Shown piece by piece: positions 7,565 through 59,767 of a DNA stretch of 64,000 bases; within the stretch, counting starts at the first letter, position 1; each line of letters starts with the position of its first letter. Source of the stretch: Patescibacteria group bacterium (lineage in GTDB: Bacteria; Patescibacteriota; Minisyncoccia; Minisyncoccales; Staskawiczbacteraceae); NCBI GenBank assembly GCA_018829965.1, contig JAHJTG010000016.1, positions 93,537 through 157,536 on the forward strand. The letters run 5' to 3'. Below the pieces are notes generated by a model, which was not told the origin of the DNA, did no database searches, and saw nothing but the letters and a program-made list of their open reading frames with translations. A program made the translations under genes and the position numbers.

Positions 7565-8938
7565 ATGACACAAAAATATTACATAATAACTTTCGGCTGC
7601 CAGATGAATGTATCGGATTCGGAAAGAATCGCAGCGGTTTTAGAATCTATAAAATACAAACCTGTTCAGAAAATAGAACCTGCTGATTTGGTTGTAGTAA
7701 ATATGTGTTCTGTGAGACAATCAGCCGTTGACCGAGTTTTTGGTTTAAACCAAAAACTCGTCAAACTCAAAAACCACAACCCACAACTCACAACTATATT
7801 AACTGGCTGTGTTCTAAAAAAAGATGAGAAAAAATTATCCAGATTTTTTGATTACATTATCAATATTAAAGATATTGGAAAACTGCCTAAAATTTTAAGA
7901 AACAAAAATGAGGGAAAAAAAGATTACCTTAGAATAAAACCAGCGCACGTTAATAAATTTTCTGCAATAGTGCCGATTATGACTGGATGTAATAATTTTT
8001 GCGCCTACTGCGTTGTCCCATACACTCGTGGAAAGGAAGTTTCAAGGCCGGCCAAAGATATTATCTGCGAGATTAAAAACTTAATTAAGCGCGGATACAA
8101 AGAAATCTGGCTGATGGGACAAAACGTGAACTCTTACGGAGTTCAACGCGAAACTGATGCGAAACAAAACGCGAAACTGATGCGAAACAAAATAAACTTT
8201 CCTAAATTATTAAAGATGGTAAATAATATTCCAGGAAACTTTTGGATAAGGTTTACCTCTTCCCATCCTAAACCCAGCACTAGGGCAAAGCTCAGTGCTG
8301 GACTAGTCCCGTACCGAAACAAAGTTTCTGGTACGGGGGATTTTTCTTGGAATGAATTAATCAATATTATAGCTAAAGGAGAGAAAATCACCCCCTACCT
8401 TAATCTTCCGGTCCAAGCTGGTGACGATAAGGTTCTGAAAAGAATGAATAGGCCTTATACAATAAAACAATATATAAATATCATTAAGAAAGTCGGAAAG
8501 AAAATTCCTGATATTTGTCTTTCAACAGATATAATTGTCGGCTTCCCCGGAGAAACAAAAAAACAATTTCAGAATAGTGTTAAATTGTTTAAAGAGATAA
8601 ATTACGACATGGCATATATCTCAGAATATTCTCCAAGACCAAAAACAATGTCCGCTAAAATGAAAGACGATATTTCCATAGAAGAAAAATCTGAAAGAAA
8701 AAGAATTCTAAATAATATCTTAAAAGAAACTGCGTTGGGAAAAAACAAACGATACGTCAATAAAGTTGTAGAAGTTTTACCAATGGAATATAAGAACGGA
8801 CTCTTATTTGGTAAATCTTGGCACTATAAAACAGTGAAGTTTAAAGGGAATAAAAACCTGATCGGAAAATTCGTTAAAGTAAAAATTACTAACGCTTTGC
8901 CTTGGATACTGGAAGGAAAAATAGAATATAGAATTTAG
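7565..8938 (+). CDS. miaB: tRNA-i6A37 methylthiotransferase MiaB (radical SAM)
   Basis: N-terminal UPF0004 domain (YIITFGCQMN), CNNFCAYC radical-SAM cluster, C-terminal TRAM domain. Carries two internal repeat insertions. Confidence 0.9.
   Translation: MTQKYYIITFGCQMNVSDSERIAAVLESIKYKPVQKIEPADLVVVNMCSVRQSAVDRVFGLNQKLVKLKNHNPQLTTILTGCVLKKDEKKLSRFFDYIINIKDIGKLPKILRNKNEGKKDYLRIKPAHVNKFSAIVPIMTGCNNFCAYCVVPYTRGKEVSRPAKDIICEIKNLIKRGYKEIWLMGQNVNSYGVQRETDAKQNAKLMRNKINFPKLLKMVNNIPGNFWIRFTSSHPKPSTRAKLSAGLVPYRNKVSGTGDFSWNELINIIAKGEKITPYLNLPVQAGDDKVLKRMNRPYTIKQYINIIKKVGKKIPDICLSTDIIVGFPGETKKQFQNSVKLFKEINYDMAYISEYSPRPKTMSAKMKDDISIEEKSERKRILNNILKETALGKNKRYVNKVVEVLPMEYKNGLLFGKSWHYKTVKFKGNKNLIGKFVKVKITNALPWILEGKIEYRI
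8273..8338 (+). repeat. 66-nt twin-hairpin insertion, in frame inside miaB
   Basis: ccagcact...agtgctgg and cccgtacc(gaaac aaa gtttc)ggtacggg. Splits the conserved SSHPK|DF motif and is translated PSTRAKLSAGLVPYRNKVSGTG. Confidence 0.7.
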
Positions 8939-18139: not shown

Positions 18140-20779
18140 TTATATATCTAAGTTCTTTACCGTCTTTGCATGAGTCTGGATAAATTTCTTTCTTGGCTCT
18201 ACCTCTTCGCCCATTAAAATATCAAAAATTTTATCTGCCTCTCTGGCGGTATCAATTGTAACCCTTAATAATAATCTATTTTGAGGATTCATTGTTGTCT
18301 CCCAAAGCTGTATTGAATCCATTTCTCCCAAACCTTTATATCGTTGGATAGAAATACTTTGATTTTTATTAACTGTTTTCAAAAGCTTCTCTTTTTGTTC
18401 GTCGTTATAGACATGCTTTATTTCTCTGCCAATCTGTATTTTATAAAGCGGTGGCTGAGCGATATAAATATATCCAGCGTCAACCAATGGTCTGAAGTGA
18501 CGATAGAAAAGAGTTAAAAGTAATGTCCTAATATGGGCGCCATCAACATCAGCATCAGTCATAATAATAACTCTATGATATCTTAGTTTTTCTATATTAA
18601 AATCTTCGCCAATCGCTGTCCCTAGAGCAATAACCAAAGCTCTTATCTCTTTTGAATCCAACATTTTGTCCAAACGAGCCCTTTCCACATTTAGAATCTT
18701 GCCTCGTAAAGGTAAAATCGCTTGAAAATGCCGGTCTCTTGCTTGTTTTGCGCTATTATGAACAAAAACCCCCGATGCCAATGCAAAGTTATGAGTATTC
18801 TTAACTTCTAAATCATAAACATCTACCCTTTCTTTCAATTTAACTATTCTTTTAATTTTATGGTTATAGCTTGAAACTGTTTGTTCTAATACTCTTTCTT
18901 TTCTAAAACATTCTTTATGAAAAGGCATTAAAGAATCTTCTGTTTTTAAGTCTTTTGCCATTTTGTAATTTCCGCCCCTCAACATAAACTTGTGATCTGG
19001 CGTACAAATCATCTCTTCGTCATTATCTAAAACAACTTTAATAACTTCTGCGTTTTCTTTTGTTTTTCTTGGATTATCAATTGGCTCGATTCCAACACTA
19101 CCGTCATTTTTAATTGTATAACAATAATTCTTCTTTCCTTGTTTATGTTCTTCAACCAAATTTTCAAAAGATAAGTTTCTTCCATCAGCTAAAGCAACTT
19201 CAGTTTTTCCAAACCAACAACCACCGGCACTCTCTCCTTCGACGATATACAATTCTGATTCTTCTGGTTTTCTTGAAAGACAATCTGCAAGTTTTCCAGG
19301 CAACGCTAATCCTTCTAATACTCCTTTTCTTAAAACTGTCTGACGAGCGCTTTTTGCCGCTTGCCTGGCTTTTGCCGCCAATAAACAGTTTTCAACAATT
19401 CCTTTAGCATCTGATGGGTAACGTTCTAAATAATCGCTTAAACCTTCTGCCACAGCTGTCTCTACGGCGTTTTTGGCTTCTGGGTTTCCTAATTTTGCTT
19501 TTGTCTGGCCCTCAAATTGAGGATTCCTTATTTTTACAGAAATTACTGAAGTTAATCCTTCTCTTACGTCTTCACCTGAAAGATTTTCATCTTTTTCTTT
19601 TAAGTATCCTTCCCTTCTAGCATAATCATTTAATGACCTCGTTAAAGCCGCCCTAAAACCAGTTAAATGAGTGCCTCCTTCTGGAGTATAGATATTATTG
19701 GCAAAACTTTCTTCAATGCATTCCATCTCTTGGGTATATTGAAAAGCTGCTTCAACTGCGATTTCGTTTTTTGTAGTAGCTATGCTGAAAACATTAGGAT
19801 TTCTTGGTGTATTCCCAGTAGTTAAATATTTTACGTAAGAAGCCACTCCCCCTTCAAAATAAAAGGCGTAGCTAAATTTCTCTTTAGAATTTCTTTCATC
19901 TGAAAAAGAAATCCTAACCCCCTTAGTAAGATAAGCCTGTTGGCGTAAATGATTTAGAATCTTCTTAGAATCAAATTTTATCTCTTTAAAAATATCTGGA
20001 TCTGCTTGGAAAGTAACAGTGGTTCCTGTCTTTCTGCAAGCTCCTATTTTTTTAACCGGAGACTTTACATCACCCTTAGCATATTCCTGCATATACAAAC
20101 CGCCATCTCTGCAAACTTCTGCTCTCATTTGAATAGACAATGCGCAAACAACAGAAACGCCGACACCATGCAAGCCTCCAGATACCTGATATGCTTTACT
20201 ACCAAATTTACCACCAGCATGTAAAACCGTCATTACAGTTTCTAATGCTGATTTTTTAGTTTGAGAATGTTTTTCTACTGGAATGCCTCTGCCATCATCA
20301 GAGACTTTAACCAAATTGTCTTGCAAAAGAGAAACCTCTATATTTTTACAATGACCAGCCATCGCTTCATCCAAGCTATTATCAATAACCTCCCAAATTA
20401 AATGATGAAGACCATCCAAACCAGTTGAGCCAATATACATTGCTGGTCTTTTTCTTACCGCCTCAAGACCTTTTAAAACATAAATATCTTTAGCTGTGTA
20501 TTCGTCCTTTCCTGTTTTTTCTTTTAAAGGCTTCTCGTCTCTCACTGTCTCAATAACCTCTTTTTCTACTTTAGTTTGTCTTGTTTTAGTTTTAATAGAT
20601 TCAACCTTAGTCGGTTTAACTTTAGCCACAACAGCTTTCTTGACTATTTTTTCAGCTTTTGGTTTCTTCTTTCCCTCACCTGCAACGCTATGCCAGCCCG
20701 CAGTAGATACAGCGTTTCTGGCGGGCGAAACATTGCGGGCAGGTTCTTTTATCTCTCTTATTTTTATTTTTATAGCCAT
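18140..20779 (-). CDS. gyrB: DNA gyrase subunit B, interrupted by a mini-intein. The long Lys-rich 5' extension is of uncertain translation.
   Basis: VLKGLEAVRKRPAMYIG, GGLHGVG, EGESAGG|intein|SAKQARDR, Toprim and C-terminal motifs. Possible alternative GTG start at 20545. Confidence 0.9.
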   Translation of the reverse strand: MAIKIKIREIKEPARNVSPARNAVSTAGWHSVAGEGKKKPKAEKIVKKAVVAKVKPTKVESIKTKTRQTKVEKEVIETVRDEKPLKEKTGKDEYTAKDIYVLKGLEAVRKRPAMYIGSTGLDGLHHLIWEVIDNSLDEAMAGHCKNIEVSLLQDNLVKVSDDGRGIPVEKHSQTKKSALETVMTVLHAGGKFGSKAYQVSGGLHGVGVSVVCALSIQMRAEVCRDGGLYMQEYAKGDVKSPVKKIGACRKTGTTVTFQADPDIFKEIKFDSKKILNHLRQQAYLTKGVRISFSDERNSKEKFSYAFYFEGGVASYVKYLTTGNTPRNPNVFSIATTKNEIAVEAAFQYTQEMECIEESFANNIYTPEGGTHLTGFRAALTRSLNDYARREGYLKEKDENLSGEDVREGLTSVISVKIRNPQFEGQTKAKLGNPEAKNAVETAVAEGLSDYLERYPSDAKGIVENCLLAAKARQAAKSARQTVLRKGVLEGLALPGKLADCLSRKPEESELYIVEGESAGGCWFGKTEVALADGRNLSFENLVEEHKQGKKNYCYTIKNDGSVGIEPIDNPRKTKENAEVIKVVLDNDEEMICTPDHKFMLRGGNYKMAKDLKTEDSLMPFHKECFRKERVLEQTVSSYNHKIKRIVKLKERVDVYDLEVKNTHNFALASGVFVHNSAKQARDRHFQAILPLRGKILNVERARLDKMLDSKEIRALVIALGTAIGEDFNIEKLRYHRVIIMTDADVDGAHIRTLLLTLFYRHFRPLVDAGYIYIAQPPLYKIQIGREIKHVYNDEQKEKLLKTVNKNQSISIQRYKGLGEMDSIQLWETTMNPQNRLLLRVTIDTAREADKIFDILMGEEVEPRKKFIQTHAKTVKNLDI
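18755..19219 (-). mobile_element. Mini-intein (155 aa, no endonuclease domain) in the GyrB EGDSAGG-SAKQGRD site
   Basis: Starts CWFGKTEV (Cys1), block B TPDH, ends GVFVHN followed by Ser+1. The exteins rejoin to the conserved EGESAGGSAKQARDR. Confidence 0.85.
20676..20742. repeat. GC-rich palindromic element type B (core tgccagcccgcagtagatacagcgtttctggcgggcg)
   Basis: The 37-bp core at 20691-20727 is 35/37 identical to 53807-53843. Outer stem acctgc/gcaggt. Confidence 0.75.
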
Positions 20780-20842: not shown

Positions 20843-22048
20843 TTAACGCAATGTAGCTCCCAAGTCCTGTTTAGTCTTTTCCCTAATTTCTTCTTGAATT
20901 TTATTTATCTCTTCATTTGTCAGCGTTCTTTCTGGCGAACGATAAACAATCCTGAACGTATAGCTCTTCTTGTCTTTTCCAAACTTACTTTCATCTTCGT
21001 ATTCGTCAATTAATTTCACCTCTTCAATAATTCCAACATTTGAATTTTCTGTCCCGACGGCTCTGCCGTCGAGGATCCTCGATGACGAAGTCATCGGGAC
21101 AAAATCTCTTACAATTTCGTAATAATTATTCAAATTTATATTTTTGTCTATCACAAAAGAAATATCTCTTGAGGTTTCCGGATACTTGCTTACTTCTTTA
21201 TACTTGCTATTAATATCTTTAAATTGGCTGGTAATTCTTAGGTCATCCGACCAAAGAACTCTAATATCTGGTATTCCCATTTTTACCATTGCTAACCTAT
21301 CTATCCCGAAGCCGAAAGCCCAGCCATTGTAAACTTCCGGATCTAAACCAAAATTCTTCAAAACCTGCTTATGAACAAGTCCCGACCCAACAACTTCCAT
21401 CCATTGCTCACCCAACTTAATATCCATCTCTACTGACGGATCCGTAAAAGGGAAAGAGTCAACGATAAACTTATGCTCAACCTTTTCTCCAAAGATACTT
21501 TTTCCGATATCGGCTAAAATATCTTTCAAATCTTCTAGGGTGATAACTTTTTGGTCTTTTTTGCAAATATATAGTCCGTCTATTTGATGAAAGGCAGGAA
21601 AATGATTTTTATCAATTTCATCTTTGCGGAAAACTATTCCAGTTGATAAAGCCCCAACACTCCCCTTTTCTTTTAATCTTTTAAAAATCTCAGGATCTCT
21701 TAAATAAAAAGGCCACATAACTGTTGTCTGCGTTCTTAAAACATATTCGTCTGTAAGGTAATAGGTATCTGTTTCTCTGCGACTCGGGTGGCCTTCTGGA
21801 GTATTTAAAACATCGAAGTTCTCTTCTAATGTAACCACTCTAGGAAAATCGACTAAATCAAAATCAGCAAATCTTGACAATTTTATTATCTGATTAGCTA
21901 AAATCTTTACAGGAGAATTCTGCTTCTTTGTAAGGTCAGGAAGGTTTAATAATTTTTTGATTCTCTCTGCTTTAATATCTTTCCTCTTCCCCAACTCCTC
22001 AATAATAGCGCCTTCTTTAGAGTTTTCTATTACGATATTTTTACGCAT
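20843..22048 (-). CDS. pheS: Phenylalanine--tRNA ligase, apparent single-chain type: PheS catalytic core fused to a C-terminal FDX-ACB (anticodon-binding) domain
   Basis: Motif 2 FRKDEIDKNHFPAFHQIDG. Motif 3 GWAFGFGIDRLAMVKMGIPDIRVLWSDDLR. C-terminus YPETSRDISFVI...KSYTFRIVYRSPERTLTNEEIN. Confidence 0.85.
   Translation of the reverse strand: MRKNIVIENSKEGAIIEELGKRKDIKAERIKKLLNLPDLTKKQNSPVKILANQIIKLSRFADFDLVDFPRVVTLEENFDVLNTPEGHPSRRETDTYYLTDEYVLRTQTTVMWPFYLRDPEIFKRLKEKGSVGALSTGIVFRKDEIDKNHFPAFHQIDGLYICKKDQKVITLEDLKDILADIGKSIFGEKVEHKFIVDSFPFTDPSVEMDIKLGEQWMEVVGSGLVHKQVLKNFGLDPEVYNGWAFGFGIDRLAMVKMGIPDIRVLWSDDLRITSQFKDINSKYKEVSKYPETSRDISFVIDKNINLNNYYEIVRDFVPMTSSSRILDGRAVGTENSNVGIIEEVKLIDEYEDESKFGKDKKSYTFRIVYRSPERTLTNEEINKIQEEIREKTKQDLGATLR
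21051..21100. repeat. GC-rich palindromic element type A, in frame inside pheS
   Basis: gtcccga-cggctctgccg-tcgaggatcctcga-tgacgaagtca-tcgggac. Translated VPMTSSSRILDGRAVGT. Confidence 0.8.
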
Positions 22049-25834: not shown

Positions 25835-25866
25835 CAAAAAACCACCTCAATTAAAAGGTGGTTTTT
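25835..25866 (-). terminator. Strong stem-loop plus U-tract located 18 nt upstream of the ATPase start codon (leader terminator or attenuator candidate)
   Basis: Minus strand reads aaccacct-tttaattg-aggtggtt followed by TTTTTG. Confidence 0.55.
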
Positions 25867-25869
25867 AAC

Positions 25870-26035
25870 AACGCGCCCAGTGCTTTGCCCGTCCGTAGCT
25901 TTAGCGAAAGAGGGCTTTGTCCTGCCGTAGTTTTAACGAAGGCGGAGGACGCAGTTCCCTGCCCGCAATGCTAAAGCATAGCTTTTGCAGACGGGGAACT
26001 TGGTTTTGGGAAAACTTCCCAGTGGTAGAACCGAA
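25870..26035. repeat. Array of four GC-rich hairpins, two with the GCTAAAGCTACGG-type loop
   Basis: gcccgtccgtagctttagcgaaagagggc, gtcctgccgtagttttaacgaaggcggaggac, agttccct...ggggaact, gggaactt...aacttccc. Confidence 0.6.
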
Positions 26036-39607: not shown

Positions 39608-39862
39608 AAGCGAGGTGTTAGCGTTAAAAGTAAATTTCACAGGCTCAATTCCCAATCTGTTGAGCGAGGCGACGAGTTTAAAGATAAATTTCGCAGGCTC
39701 AATTCCCAAACTGTTAAGCGAGGCGACGAGTTTAAAAGTAAATTTCGCAGGCAATTTAGCATGGTTTCGCCGATTGGCGACCGCAACCGACCGCAACACC
39801 GGGTGTTGCGGAGTAAGGGGTTTGGATTATCGCCACTTTTATGGCTACTGCCGAGCGACATT
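39608..39862. repeat. Expanded AGCGAGG...CCGAGCGA element: ~2.6 tandem 54-55-bp units plus a conserved ~110-bp GC-rich module
   Basis: Units start at 39608, 39663 and 39717. The tail gcatggtttcgccgattggcg...ccgcaacaccgggtgttgcgg...attatcgccacttttat...ccgagcgaca is shared with 44618-44826. Confidence 0.7.
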
Positions 39863-44508: not shown

Positions 44509-44544
44509 AATAATTTTAATTTTCAATTCCCAATTTTCAATTTT

Positions 44545-44587
44545 TCCCGACTTCGTCGAGGATCCTCGATGGCTTCGCCATCGGGAC
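44545..44587. repeat. GC-rich palindromic element type A, intergenic copy
   Basis: tcccga-cttcgtcg-aggatcctcga-tggcttcgcca-tcgggac. Confidence 0.8.
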
Positions 44588-44617
44588 AATGAATTTTTAA
44601 TTATCTAATCTTCAAAA

Positions 44618-44826
44618 TGTTAAGTGAGGCAATAATGTATACGGAGCACTTCGCGGAGCCAAGCTAAACTGTTAAGCGAGGTGGTAGTTATAAAAGTGCC
44701 TCTCGCGGGCGATTTTGCATGGCTTCGCCGATTGGCGGCCGCAACACCGGGTGTTGCGGAGTTGGTGTTGCGAAGTGAGGGGTTTGAATTATCGCCACTT
44801 TTATAACTACTACCGAGCGACACTCT
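44618..44826. repeat. Expanded AGCGAGG...CCGAGCGA element with a 15-bp perfect stem enclosing the conserved GC-rich module
   Basis: gtagttataaaagtg (about 44684) pairs with cacttttataactac (about 44796). The cargo contains the ccgcaacaccgggtgttgcgg hairpin. Confidence 0.7.
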
Positions 44827-53658: not shown

Positions 53659-54231
53659 TTATAGTCTTTCCACAATTTTTAATTCTACACTATCCTTCTC
53701 CGTATCATAAACAGCGAAAGTTGGCTTAAAGATTTGACCTGCAGCTTCACCGGGGTTAATTAATAAGCATCCTTTTTCTTCCCCGCTCGCAACGCTTCGC
53801 TTCGCTTGCCAGCCCGCAGTAGATACAACGTTTCTGACGGGCGTAGCGATGCGGACGAGCCATGGCTTATGAGTATGGCCGTAAAAAACTATATCGTATT
53901 TTCCTGATTCGGCTAATTGTTTAGCCGGCTCTAATTTATGGATAACAGCTATTTTTTTACCGTCTAATTCTATTTCCAAGGGTTCTTGAACAACTTTGAT
54001 TGTCGACGGATTTTGATATTCCTCTATCCTTATATCCCAATCTTTATCCATATTGCCAAAAATCCCAAGAAATTCTCCTTTGAAATTTGCCAAAGACTCC
54101 TTCAATGATTCCGGGCTGCCGATATCGCCGCAATGCAAAATAGTCTTTATATTTTCTTTGTTTACCCATTCAACAATTTTTTTAAAAGTTGCAGTATTAC
54201 CGTGAGTATCAGAAATAATTACGATTTTCAT
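53659..54231 (-). CDS. Metallophosphoesterase (YfcE/MJ0936 family) with an in-frame repeat insertion
   Basis: MKIVIISDTHGN, HCGDIG, GNMD, GHTHKP...INPG. Confidence 0.8.
   Translation of the reverse strand: MKIVIISDTHGNTATFKKIVEWVNKENIKTILHCGDIGSPESLKESLANFKGEFLGIFGNMDKDWDIRIEEYQNPSTIKVVQEPLEIELDGKKIAVIHKLEPAKQLAESGKYDIVFYGHTHKPWLVRIATPVRNVVSTAGWQAKRSVASGEEKGCLLINPGEAAGQIFKPTFAVYDTEKDSVELKIVERL
53781..53860. repeat. GC-rich palindromic element type B, in frame inside the phosphoesterase gene
   Basis: Core 53807-53843. Translated RIATPVRNVVSTAGWQAKRSVASGEE between the conserved GHTHKP and INPG motifs. Confidence 0.8.
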
Positions 54232-55086: not shown

Positions 55087-57576
55087 TTATTTTCCATGGC
55101 AGTGTTTGTACTTTATCGGACGACCATCTTCATGCTTCGCTCCGCATGGACAAGGATCATTTCTGCCAACTTCTCCTTTAGGTTTTGGTGCCTGCCCGCC
55201 TAAATGCGACGGCTTTTGGCGGGTTAATTCAGCTTTTAAAATATTATTAGCAATAGCAATCTCTGTCTCTTCTAAAAATCTTTGGAACATTCTTCTCCCC
55301 TCTCTTTTATATTCTATCAACGGATCCTGCTGGCCGTAAGCCCTTAATCGCACGGAATCCCTTAAATAATCCATATCTTCCAAATGTTCTATCCAATAAG
55401 TGTCTAAAACTCTAAGAGAGACAAATTTTAGAATTTGCTCCATATTCTCTTTGCCGATTTCTTTTTCTTTCTTATTATAATCCTCTTCTGTAAATCCAGC
55501 CTTTTTAATAATCTCTAAAATATATTCTTTTAAATTATTTTGGTCATTGGTTATTGGGGTTTGTCCCGCGAAGCGGGATCCCGTCTCGCGGGAGGATTTT
55601 TCTAGTATCTCTTTTCTCTTTTTATAAAATACCTCTCGGTGTTTATTCATTACCTCGTCGTATTCTAAAATATGTTTTCTGGAGTCAAAATGAAACCCCT
55701 CAACTTTTTCTTGGGCTGAAGCGATTGCTTTTGAAATCATTCCTGATTCTATTGGCTGGTCTTCTGGAATATTAAAAGTATTCATTATGTTCTTTATCCT
55801 GTCCCCGCCGAAAACTCTCATCAAATCGTCTTCTAAAGACACGAAAAACTGGGAAGAGCCGGGGTCTCCCTGCCTGCCAGACCTTCCTCGCAACTGGTCA
55901 TCAATTCTTCTTGCTTCGTGCCTTTCTGTGCCAATAACGTGAAGCCCGCCTGCTTCTATAACTTTCTTCTGCTCTTCCAAGTCCGGCGGATTCCCCCCCA
56001 AGATTATATCCACGCCTCTTCCTGCCATATTAGTAGCAATGGTTACAGCTCCAAGTTTTCCTGCTTGAGCAATAGTTTCAGCTTCTTTCTCATGATTCTT
56101 GGCATTTAAAATCTGGTGCCGAATCCCCTCTCTTTCTAATAGTTTCCCCAAAAACTCATTCTTTTCAATTGAAACCGTTCCGACTAAAACTGGCTGGCCT
56201 TTTTTATTCCTTTCTTTGATTTCGTTCACAACCGACTTAAACTTTCCTTCAATAGATTTATATACCCTATCTGGTAGATATTCTCTTATAAGTGGCTTAT
56301 TCGTAGGGATAGAAACGACTTCTAATTTATATACTTTATCAAATTCTTCGGCAGAAGTCTGGGCAGTGCCGGTCATACCAGATAGTTTTTTATACATCCT
56401 AAAATAGTTTTGAAAAGTAATTGTTGCCCATGTTTTTGATTCCTCCTGAACATCAACTCCTTCTTTGGCCTCAACTGCCTGATGCAGACCCGCAGACCAG
56501 CGACGGCCAGGCATTAACCTGCCGGTAAATTCATCTACGATTATAACCTTCCCGTCTTTTACAACATAATTTTTATCTTTTTGAAATAATGTTTTTGCTT
56601 TTAGAGCTGATTCTAATTGATGAATCGTCGTAATGTCGCTATCTAACCAAGGGTCGGAACCAAGGCTTTTTATCATTTTTACCTGACCCTGTTCAGTAAA
56701 AGTAGCTACTCTTAATTTCTCGTCTAATTCATAGTCTTCTTTTTCTTGTAAGCCTATTACTAATTTCGCAAATTGATAATATTTTCCGGTCGGCTCCCCG
56801 CCTGGAGAAGAAATAATTAAGGGGGTTCTTGCCTCATCAATTAAAATAGAGTCTATCTCATCAACAATCGCATAGTTATGACCCCGCTGGGATTGCTCTT
56901 GCAAGCTATGAACCATATTATCTTTTAAATAATCAAAGCCGAATTCATTGTTCGTGCCATAAGTAATGTCAACTGAATACGCTTCTTTTCTGGAAACCGG
57001 CCTTAAGAAGTCTTCCATGACCTTAAAGCTTCCTATCGAGTCTCTAATTTTATCTTCTGTCTCTTCTGCTTTCTTATATCCAGAATCATAGACAAAAGAT
57101 TGTTCGTGATTCAAACAACCTACTGTCAAGCCAAGAAAATGGTATATCTGGCCCATCCAAACAGTGTCTCTTCTTGCTAAATAATCATTGACCGTAATAA
57201 TATGAACGCCCTTTTCAGTTAAGGCATTTAAGTAAGCTGACAAAGTAGCGGTTAATGTTTTTCCTTCTCCTGTTTTCATTTCTGCAATTTGGCCTTGGTG
57301 TAAAACAATGCCACCGATCATTTGAACGTCAAAATGACGTTGTGAAAGTACTCTTTTTGATGCCTCGCGGACTACGCCAAAAGTCTCTGACAATAAATCG
57401 TCCACTGTTTTCCCATTAGCTAATTGTTCTTTAAACTCTTTAGTCTTATTTCTTAATTCCTCATCAGAAAGCTTTTGAAGAGCTGCTTCAAAAGAGCCTA
57501 TTTCAGCAATTATTGGGTCTAGTTTTTTTAGATTTTTCTGATGGACATCACCGAAAATCTTTGTGAAGATTGACAT
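55087..57576 (-). CDS. secA: Preprotein translocase ATPase SecA
   Basis: MKTGEGKTL, DEIDSILIDEARTPLIIS, TNMAGRGVDI, C-terminal zinc motif CPCG...HCHG. Confidence 0.95.
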   Translation of the reverse strand: MSIFTKIFGDVHQKNLKKLDPIIAEIGSFEAALQKLSDEELRNKTKEFKEQLANGKTVDDLLSETFGVVREASKRVLSQRHFDVQMIGGIVLHQGQIAEMKTGEGKTLTATLSAYLNALTEKGVHIITVNDYLARRDTVWMGQIYHFLGLTVGCLNHEQSFVYDSGYKKAEETEDKIRDSIGSFKVMEDFLRPVSRKEAYSVDITYGTNNEFGFDYLKDNMVHSLQEQSQRGHNYAIVDEIDSILIDEARTPLIISSPGGEPTGKYYQFAKLVIGLQEKEDYELDEKLRVATFTEQGQVKMIKSLGSDPWLDSDITTIHQLESALKAKTLFQKDKNYVVKDGKVIIVDEFTGRLMPGRRWSAGLHQAVEAKEGVDVQEESKTWATITFQNYFRMYKKLSGMTGTAQTSAEEFDKVYKLEVVSIPTNKPLIREYLPDRVYKSIEGKFKSVVNEIKERNKKGQPVLVGTVSIEKNEFLGKLLEREGIRHQILNAKNHEKEAETIAQAGKLGAVTIATNMAGRGVDIILGGNPPDLEEQKKVIEAGGLHVIGTERHEARRIDDQLRGRSGRQGDPGSSQFFVSLEDDLMRVFGGDRIKNIMNTFNIPEDQPIESGMISKAIASAQEKVEGFHFDSRKHILEYDEVMNKHREVFYKKRKEILEKSSRETGSRFAGQTPITNDQNNLKEYILEIIKKAGFTEEDYNKKEKEIGKENMEQILKFVSLRVLDTYWIEHLEDMDYLRDSVRLRAYGQQDPLIEYKREGRRMFQRFLEETEIAIANNILKAELTRQKPSHLGGQAPKPKGEVGRNDPCPCGAKHEDGRPIKYKHCHGK

Positions 57577-59666: not shown

Positions 59667-59681
59667 AATATTAGATGTTGG

Positions 59682-59767
59682 GTGTCCCGACTTCGTCGAG
59701 GATCCCCGATGGTTCCGACTTTGTCGAGAATCCTCGACTTTGTCGGGACTTCGCCATCGGGATTAGT
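59682..59767. mobile_element. Nested or double GC-rich palindromic element type A, flanked by a 13-bp perfect direct repeat
   Basis: tattagatgttgg occurs at 59669-59681 and 59768-59780. Interior: gtcccgacttcgtcgaggatcc...ttccgactttgtcgagaatcctcgactttgtcgggac...ttcgccatcggga. Confidence 0.75.

Follow-up and report, generated by a model that had tools for sequence, protein, structure and literature searches.

The window analysed here is the whole of a 64-kb stretch of contig JAHJTG010000016.1 from a bacterium of the Patescibacteria, or candidate phyla radiation (CPR). It contains an intact gene for MiaB, the tRNA i6A37 methylthiotransferase, into whose reading frame a GC-rich element of 66 nucleotides (nt) with two hairpins has been inserted. 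The MiaB open reading frame (ORF) runs from 7565 to 8938 on the plus strand and encodes 457 amino acids, with the insert in frame. Its score with the MiaB equivalog model of NCBIfam (TIGR01574) is 385.8 bits, compared with a curated cutoff of 355.3, and the Pfam domains UPF0004, Radical_SAM, and TRAM are all found. The conserved Cys residues are all present and are invariant in the alignment. MiaB profiles align to residues 4–237 and resume at residue 263, skipping residues 238–262, which correspond to the insert. An AlphaFold2 model of the protein has a mean predicted local distance difference test (pLDDT) of 84.9; in this model, insert residues 237–260 have a pLDDT below 50, adopt no secondary structure, and lie between a strand (residues 227–230) and a helix (residues 262–271). 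The model points to a disordered loop grafted onto the strand-to-helix connection of the radical-SAM barrel, and the enzyme is probably still active despite the insert.

The element occupies positions 8273–8338 of the plus strand (CCCAGCACTAGGGCAAAGCTCAGTGCTGGACTAGTCCCGTACCGAAACAAAGTTTCTGGTACGGGG), has the predicted translation PSTRAKLSAGLVPYRNKVSGTG, and agrees with the consensus of a dispersed repeat (CCCAGCACCAGAGCAAAGCTCGGTGCTGGACTAGTCCCGCACCGAAACAAAGTTTCTGGTGCGGGG). Hairpin 1 (8274–8301, plus strand) is built on an 8-bp stem with the perfect arms CCAGCACT (8274–8281) and AGTGCTGG (8294–8301); its loop of 12 nt contains an inner 4-bp stem (GGGC/GCTC), and a 1-nt bulge and an AAA loop complete the structure. 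The linker ACTAGT (8302–8307) separates it from hairpin 2 (8308–8337), whose perfect 8-bp arms, CCCGTACC (8308–8315) and GGTACGGG (8330–8337), enclose a loop of 14 nt (gaaacaaagtttct) with an inner 5-bp stem (GAAAC/GTTTC), a 1-nt bulge, and again an AAA loop. Around the centre GGAC(T/C)AGTCC (GGACTAGTCC), in which the linker lies, hairpin 2 approximates the reverse complement of hairpin 1, and the element is therefore an inverted doublet of one unit resembling the repetitive extragenic palindromes (REPs). Two adjacent hairpins with perfect 8-bp stems in these 66 nt had been proposed by an earlier sequence-only reading, and folding agrees: the predicted RNA fold of 8260–8350 consists of exactly hairpins 1 and 2 at -39.1 kcal/mol, compared with a mean of -22.7 kcal/mol for shuffled sequences (z = -4.9), and 0 of 200 shuffles were as stable. 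Its loop length was right for hairpin 1 (12 nt) and one short for hairpin 2, given as 13 nt, while its length of 22 codons applies to the insert itself but not to the net gain in MiaB, which is 23 codons with an extra Trp codon 9 nt downstream. The G+C content of the insert is approximately 55% vs. 35% for the window. Directly 5′ of the element stands an AAA (Lys) triplet (8270–8272, plus strand), which is native to MiaB and represents the preferred 5′ flank or target. The downstream flank GAT TTT TCT TGG (8339–8350, plus strand) includes the extra Trp codon TGG (8348–8350) and is present with the element in every insert-bearing MiaB. No second copy of either hairpin pattern occurs within the 64-kb window, where none is expected by chance, and an Rfam E-value search of 8150–8450 returned nothing near any gathering score. 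An intragenic terminator formed by hairpin 2 and a T-run was rejected, as the terminator scan did not flag it. An intein was also rejected, given that the insert PSTRAKLSAGLVPYRNKVSGTG has 22 amino acids rather than the approximately 130 or more needed and the terminal motifs are absent.

Beyond the window, the insert proves to be a dispersed repeat of many genomes. A scan with the insert-peptide alignment, run over a set with one genome for each prokaryotic species, gave 28 loci in 22 CPR genomes, whose labels are Nealsonbacteria, Parcubacteria, Jorgensenbacteria, Paceibacteria, and “Saccharibacteria”, with one to three loci per species genome and MiaB accounting for only 1 of the 28. A frame-blind DNA scan of metagenomes, which used a pattern across the hairpin junction and demanded an exact 23-nt core, matched at least 120 contigs; the copy, site, and family counts that follow cover the collected loci, that is, those among the matches listed. 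Over all collected loci there are at least 153 copies, and 124 genic copies fall into approximately 49 host families. By Pfam, these include UvrB, UvrC, AlaRS, PheT, IF-2, PNPase, Pth, YbeY, TatD, and PolX, followed by DegV/FakA, an RsmI-like methylase, ELP3, YebC, HDAC, PMT glycosyltransferase, ABC ATPase, and others, and UvrA is also a host. Most copies lie inside essential genes and are read in one frame. The same frame-blind DNA pattern found no copy in the viral contigs of IMG/VR and hence no hint of a phage vector. A protein query made of two joined insert peptides gave only three tiny matches and was of no use as a census. Variants of the element include single hairpin units, hybrid units, flipped loops, and nested and composite forms. 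Copying within a genome is indicated most clearly by JAUSKP01, where two copies have private variants in common: their 5′ flank reads CAA, and their loop contains AGG. Among the other arrangements seen, the 66-nt element occurs twice in one small TsaE-like gene (L135), in opposing orientations: on the minus strand at approximately 838 and on the plus strand at approximately 1059. Of these two copies, one, near the N-terminus, is read in frame R3, and the other is read in F1. Two further copies in genome JAHIPW01 (L031 and L032) lie within longer similar flanks with TCCGAAA(T/C)CCGAAA tandem units, and thus the 66-nt element can belong to a larger repeated block.

After removal of redundancy, the frame-blind scan comprises 90 distinct sites, of which 75 are within long ORFs and 15 are intergenic or at an ORF edge. 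The genic sites are read in frame F1 (PSTRAKLGAGLVPHRNKVSGAG) in 62 cases and in other frames in 13 (F2 in five, R3 in three, R1 in two, F3 in two, and R2 in one), and 69 of the 75 have the same orientation as the host gene. The triplet AAA or AAG (AAR) stands 5′ of 87 of 102 distinct copies (85%), including 13 of the 15 non-genic ones. A frame bias arising from this Lys-codon target alone was rejected, since it predicts an F1 share of 0.20 among genic sites, whereas the observed share is 0.83 (62 of 75; p = 4e-31). Stop codons do not explain the bias either, as four to six of the six frames of the element are open. It therefore calls for selection that acts on translation or for an unknown form of targeting.

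Constraint within the element acts on pairing. In 52 distinct copies, stem pairing is kept in 97.9% of cells, and double compensatory changes affect 14 cells, at pairs 6–25, 9–22, and 11–21 of hairpin 1 and pair 40–61 of hairpin 2 (C–G vs. T–A), a result matched by 0 of 500 shuffles. The covariation at 40–61 is visible in the peptide as His/Ala vs. Tyr/Thr. The window copy carries T–A at both 9–22 and 40–61, the latter giving Tyr...Thr instead of His...Ala. Variable positions are confined to the loops, the linker, where position 32 is T or C about equally among copies, and the compensated pairs, and the changes there mostly alter the amino acid, while third-codon positions within the stems are invariant. 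This combination indicates constraint on nucleic-acid pairing and not on the peptide. Two local hairpins are favored over a single long hairpin of the REPIN type (REPINs being hairpins formed by REP doublets), which is energetically possible for the consensus and almost as stable (-38.1 vs. -42.3 kcal/mol) but shows no covariation, its level being reached by 130 of 500 shuffles.

The 120 database homologs nearest to the window MiaB, which come without exception from Patescibacteria-type sources and include the protein itself, were used to follow the history of the insertion. In 109 of them, SSHPK continues into DFS-xELI without interruption, and in 11 an insert occurs at exactly the same site; the core is thus normally contiguous here and the insertion is in frame, as first supposed from the sequence. 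The alternative that orthologs across the phylum share the peptide with non-palindromic coding DNA does not hold, because most orthologs lack the insert and the carriers have palindromic DNA with compensatory stem changes. The extra Trp (DFSW) is found in 11 of 11 filled proteins and in 0 of 109 empty ones. The closest homolog (P0002, 79% identical over conserved columns) has no insert, and the filled proteins are spread over the tree and are not monophyletic, the nearest neighbour of each being empty. In one pair of MiaB genes with 93% DNA identity (L153 and L154), only one member is filled, and the differences cluster at the junction, where AAA, the insert, and GAT TTT TCT TGG GAT in one gene correspond in the other to AAG, GAC TTT TCC, and AGC, with a gap in place of TGG. 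The flank GAT TTT TCT TGG is identical in six of six distinct filled alleles, while empty alleles read GAT TTC TCA or GAC TTT TCC and have no TGG; the Lys 5′ of the element is already found in the empty orthologs. It seems that the MiaB allele is a single-origin patch of 66 + 12 nt swapped between diverged MiaB genes. Simple excision would leave the Trp codon behind, and no empty MiaB has one. Two expanded MiaB copies measure 81 and 84 nt, an extra hairpin is nested in the loop of hairpin 2 in two MiaB alleles, and decayed copies also occur (e.g., P0006).

Other parts of the MiaB gene vary as well. The genes L153 and L154 also differ by a 42-nt in-frame indel (KQTSRFTPCNCSAIM...) at approximately codons 80–95, which suggests that other loops of the gene turn over likewise. 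The window MiaB contains a perfect 23-nt tandem duplication (AACGCGAAACTGATGCGAAACAA twice, 8145–8190) that is read in two frames (RETDAKQ and NAKLMRNK). This duplication is located in the NSY...INFPKLL loop, a second hypervariable MiaB loop with many unrelated inserts among the 120 orthologs, and this loop is of low confidence in the structural model (residues 196–207). A GCGAAAC tandem resembling the duplication exists at locus L062:2854.

The boundaries of the element are defined in a second host family, the peptidyl-tRNA hydrolase Pth, for which 120 orthologs were compared. One site is filled in 10 of the 120, and presence is patchy, as in MiaB. The filled proteins have exactly 22 amino acids between a Lys and a Phe that are both found in the empty orthologs (...NPEK followed by FVLQKF), from which it follows that the element is 66 nt long, that the AAR triplet is native, and that there is no target duplication. 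The duplication typical of a classical MITE (a transposable element of the miniature inverted-repeat type) is thus missing, both in Pth with its gain of exactly 22 amino acids and in MiaB, where the element starts right after the native Lys codon. An element of 69 nt that includes AAR, which would explain the 23-codon gain in MiaB, was rejected as a general rule given the Lys in empty Pth and MiaB orthologs and the 22-residue gain in Pth, although the unusual CAA shared by the 5′ flanks of the two JAUSKP01 copies leaves this question partly unsettled. Decayed copies are found in Pth as well (P0137, P0132, P0130, and P0129), and decayed peptides in the Pth and MiaB copies include LYYGAKLGAG..., TSARAK..., and ...VRDLNEVSGAG. 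The Pth loop between GIK and FVLQKF (P0121–P0240) is hypervariable and contains many different palindrome-like inserts, such as KFKMQNAKLKFKIQ and KIRMGAFAYPSGARR..., and hairpin insertions appear to have a general hot spot here. In P0185, a lone hairpin-2 unit (TPYRNEISGAG) is present at a different position of Pth.

The element is therefore dispersed in many genes and genomes, lies 3′ of AAR without target duplication, decays, and is patchy among orthologs. The sequence at 8273–8338 is probably a copy of a small, non-autonomous, GC-rich palindromic repeat of the Patescibacteria, an inverted REP-like doublet that is selfish and is translated as a tolerated disordered loop. Such a repeat would spread by hairpin-dependent cut- or copy-and-paste with the enzyme supplied in trans, and single-strand HUH transposition of the IS200/IS605 type, or of the type performed by REP-associated tyrosine transposases (RAYTs), would fit its anatomy best. 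Selection would then filter the insertions, such that the survivors keep the frame through a length of 66 nt, carry no stops, encode a benign F1 peptide rich in Gly, Ala, Ser, Pro, and Lys, and occupy a permissive loop. In MiaB, the element would be read through as a predicted disordered loop that joins a barrel strand to the helix after it in a functional enzyme, and the allele, composed of the element and its 12-nt flank with the Trp codon, may have moved among diverged MiaB genes by short-patch recombination. Several observations weigh against a selfish mobile repeat. Copy number is low, at one to three per species genome, compared with tens to hundreds for REPINs and Rickettsia palindromic elements (RPEs). 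Copies are approximately 95% identical across genes and lineages, a figure that is partly inflated because the scan required the exact 23-nt core, and recurrence at the same site of orthologs could equally mean a conserved function. Simple transposition does not account for the extra Trp codon of MiaB. Among 95 ORFs beside non-genic copies, Pfam identified ordinary genes only and no transposase family, which is a weak negative, and no IS200-like TnpA was found in 1.2 Mb of collected loci, another weak result in that the query sequence was approximate.

The strongest competitor, though an unlikely one, is that the hairpins are a selected, functional, cis-acting nucleic-acid signal recruited into many genes. 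It might act in mRNA stability or as a site for RNase III, cause a translational pause, bind a CPR-specific protein, or serve as a signal for recombination or DNA uptake. In favor of such a signal are the upkeep of both stems by compensatory changes, the approximately 95% identity among copies of different lineages and genes, the orientation of 69 of 75 genic copies with the host gene, and the signature of short-patch exchange in MiaB. Departures from pairing of the G–U type are also somewhat commoner than those of the A–C type, and several hosts act in DNA repair (UvrA/B/C, PolX, and TatD). However, the element is absent from most orthologs of every host gene examined, and copies have decayed in Pth (P0137, P0132, P0130, and P0129) and MiaB (P0006). 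It also shows no positional pattern within genes, and intergenic or ORF-edge positions account for 15 of the 90 sites. At one to three copies per genome, it is far too rare for an uptake signal; the terminator scan did not flag it, and it has no Rfam family match.

Less likely still is an intervening sequence, absent from the mature protein because it is cut out of the mRNA (as a mini-intron or an insert processed by RNase), cut out of the protein, or bypassed by the ribosome. CPR bacteria have unusual insertions in their rRNA genes, and a compact, stable, GC-rich structure within an AT-rich mRNA is what such a sequence would resemble. Yet neither removal nor bypass needs a length that is a multiple of three, an open frame, or a preferred frame, whereas the length is 66 nt in canonical copies and 81 and 84 nt in the two expanded MiaB ones, and F1 is used in 83% of genic copies. 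No intron or ribozyme family matches the insert, and 22 amino acids are far too few for an intein.

That the insert is a vertically inherited, functional peptide loop of a MiaB subfamily, with an incidental palindrome, is highly improbable. The conservation of the peptide in 11 of 120 orthologs at one site, always with DFSW, and the strong preference for F1 would suit this explanation, which is contradicted by the occurrence of the same DNA in approximately 49 unrelated families and in intergenic DNA. The invariance of synonymous stem positions, while loop positions freely change the amino acid, also argues against it; furthermore, the filled MiaB proteins are not monophyletic and the insert region is predicted to be disordered. 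Lastly, the proposal that the palindrome arose by chance or is an artefact of assembly or sequencing, for which the metagenome-type assembly of the source offers the only argument, is refuted by the recurrence of the sequence in over 150 independent contigs, which come from many projects and assemblers, and by the shuffles, of which 0 of 200 were as stable.

The window contains additional hairpin repeats of other sequence types, and the claim that the MiaB insert is one of several with in-frame behavior is upheld by inserts in SecA and in a PheS-like gene. In SecA (ORF 55087–57576, minus strand), an in-frame twin hairpin of a second kind lies at 55564–55593 (TCCCGCGAAGCGGGA / TCCCGTCTCGCGGGA, peptide SRETGSRFAG), and the best SecA profile stretch does not extend beyond residue 662, just ahead of it. 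A third GC-rich hairpin family (GTCCCGA..GTCGAGGATCCTCGA..) has an in-frame copy at 21039–21104 in a gene for a PheS-like tRNA ligase (ORF 20843–22048, minus strand; peptide VPMTSSSRILDGRAVGT), and related copies are located at 44540–44594 and 59669–59764, one lying on the edge of a long ORF and the other within a short one. More GC-rich repeat families are common to distant parts of the window (20660–20757 and 53765–53885; 39637–39838 and 44641–44788; 25855–25997), as exemplified by GCCAGCCCGCAGTAGATACA...CGTTTCTG.CGGGC, and some are found at the starts or ends of long ORFs.

Among known repeats, the behavior of the 66-nt element is close to that of the RPEs. RPE-1 to RPE-10 (Ogata et al., 2000, 2002, via PMC2229807 and PMC10969869) and the protein-coding palindromic repeats of Wolbachia (Ogata, 2005, via PMC2229807) are described in the literature. 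Like these, the element is a dispersed palindromic repeat with an open frame that is inserted in frame into conserved housekeeping genes of a reduced genome, leaves the host gene intact, and has no clear target duplication, and both can be read as selfish DNA at permissive sites. RPEs, however, are single long stem-loops of 105–146 bp with terminal inverted repeats of approximately 12 bp, whereas the element has 66 nt and two local hairpins, and their hosts are Rickettsiales rather than Patescibacteria. Because length and host differ from the published description (PMC2229807), the element is not filed as an RPE. In R. bellii, only 53 of 526 RPE copies lie in genes and most are intergenic (PMC1458961), in contrast to 75 of 90 sites for the element. 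RPEs are also high in copy within a genome, while the element occurs at one to three copies per genome over many species. Overall, the element parallels the RPEs in behavior and is not known to be related to them.

REPs, bacterial interspersed mosaic elements (BIMEs), and REPINs are mobilized by RAYT transposases (PMC3116915, PMC3337134, PMC3733652). The element shares with REPs and REPINs the short, GC-rich, imperfect palindromes of approximately 28–30 nt with a bulge, the occurrence either singly or as inverted doublets whose units are separated by a short spacer, the modular mosaic arrangements, and the lack of target duplications. In contrast to these repeats, which are extragenic by definition, it is mainly intragenic (75 of 90 sites in long ORFs), and neither of the tags found at the foot of REP palindromes, GTAG or CGTC (PMC3733652), is present on either strand of the 66-nt consensus. 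REPINs form a single long hairpin, whereas covariation in the element supports two local ones; REPs and REPINs reach high copy numbers, unlike the element, and no RAYT was identified among the 95 ORFs beside non-genic copies. Extragenic location, the GTAG/CGTC tag, and high copy number are thus three defining features of REPs and REPINs that the element lacks, and the missing target duplication also sets it apart from classical MITEs.

The ends of IS200/IS605 elements and their palindrome-associated miniature derivatives have a hairpin at each end, produce no target duplication, and insert 3′ of a fixed short sequence. Hairpins at the ends, the absence of duplication, insertion 3′ of AAR, and precise presence or absence are all found for the element, which fits this pattern without proof of mechanism. 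It differs in that its 5′ flank is only 85% conserved and its hairpins abut the ends rather than being subterminal with guide sequences, and no TnpA or TnpB was identified as a partner in the loci covered. Organelles provide further examples of GC-rich hairpin inserts in the protein-coding genes of AT-rich, compact genomes. Among these are GC-rich mobile hairpins of yeast mitochondria, namely the ‘byp’ elements and the GC clusters. The ribosome skips byp elements, for which an open frame is not required; bypassing by the ribosome is also exemplified by gene 60 of T4. In the mitochondria of Nematomorpha, coding palindromes are long and gene-specific (PMC6649704). Unlike byp elements and the Nematomorpha palindromes, the element belongs to a fixed 66-nt family with a strongly preferred frame that is predicted to be translated.

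No description of such elements in CPR bacteria or Patescibacteria was found in the searchable full-text literature. A broader proposal, put forward tentatively and considered somewhat doubtful, is that they represent an undescribed CPR superfamily of REP-like, GC-rich hairpin modules (singlets, inverted doublets, and nested forms) that, in contrast to all REP/REPIN systems, reside mainly in essential genes in one translated frame, move between species, and spread at orthologous sites by short-patch gene conversion together with flanking codons, as in the DFSW allele of MiaB. If true, this would imply an unknown hairpin-specific mobilization or recombination system in CPR bacteria and would constitute a general route for the evolution of surface loops in CPR core proteins.

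Protein-coding palindromes inserted in frame have so far been seen as a peculiarity of Rickettsia, with Wolbachia as the other reported case; the title of a 2002 paper by Ogata reportedly calls those of Rickettsia “unique but recurrent”. That a much smaller hairpin family does likewise in ultra-small bacteria, whether free-living or episymbiotic, suggests a general outcome, in which genomes with almost no intergenic space retain selfish hairpin DNA within genes as a source of new protein loops. For the study of CPR genomes, such inserts split profile matches and inflate apparent protein divergence, and as GC-rich structured islands they may have an influence on assembly, gene calling, and structure prediction. 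Given that presence is patchy at identical sites and that the flank travels with the MiaB element, horizontal short-patch exchange among CPR lineages can be tested directly with strain-resolved metagenomes.

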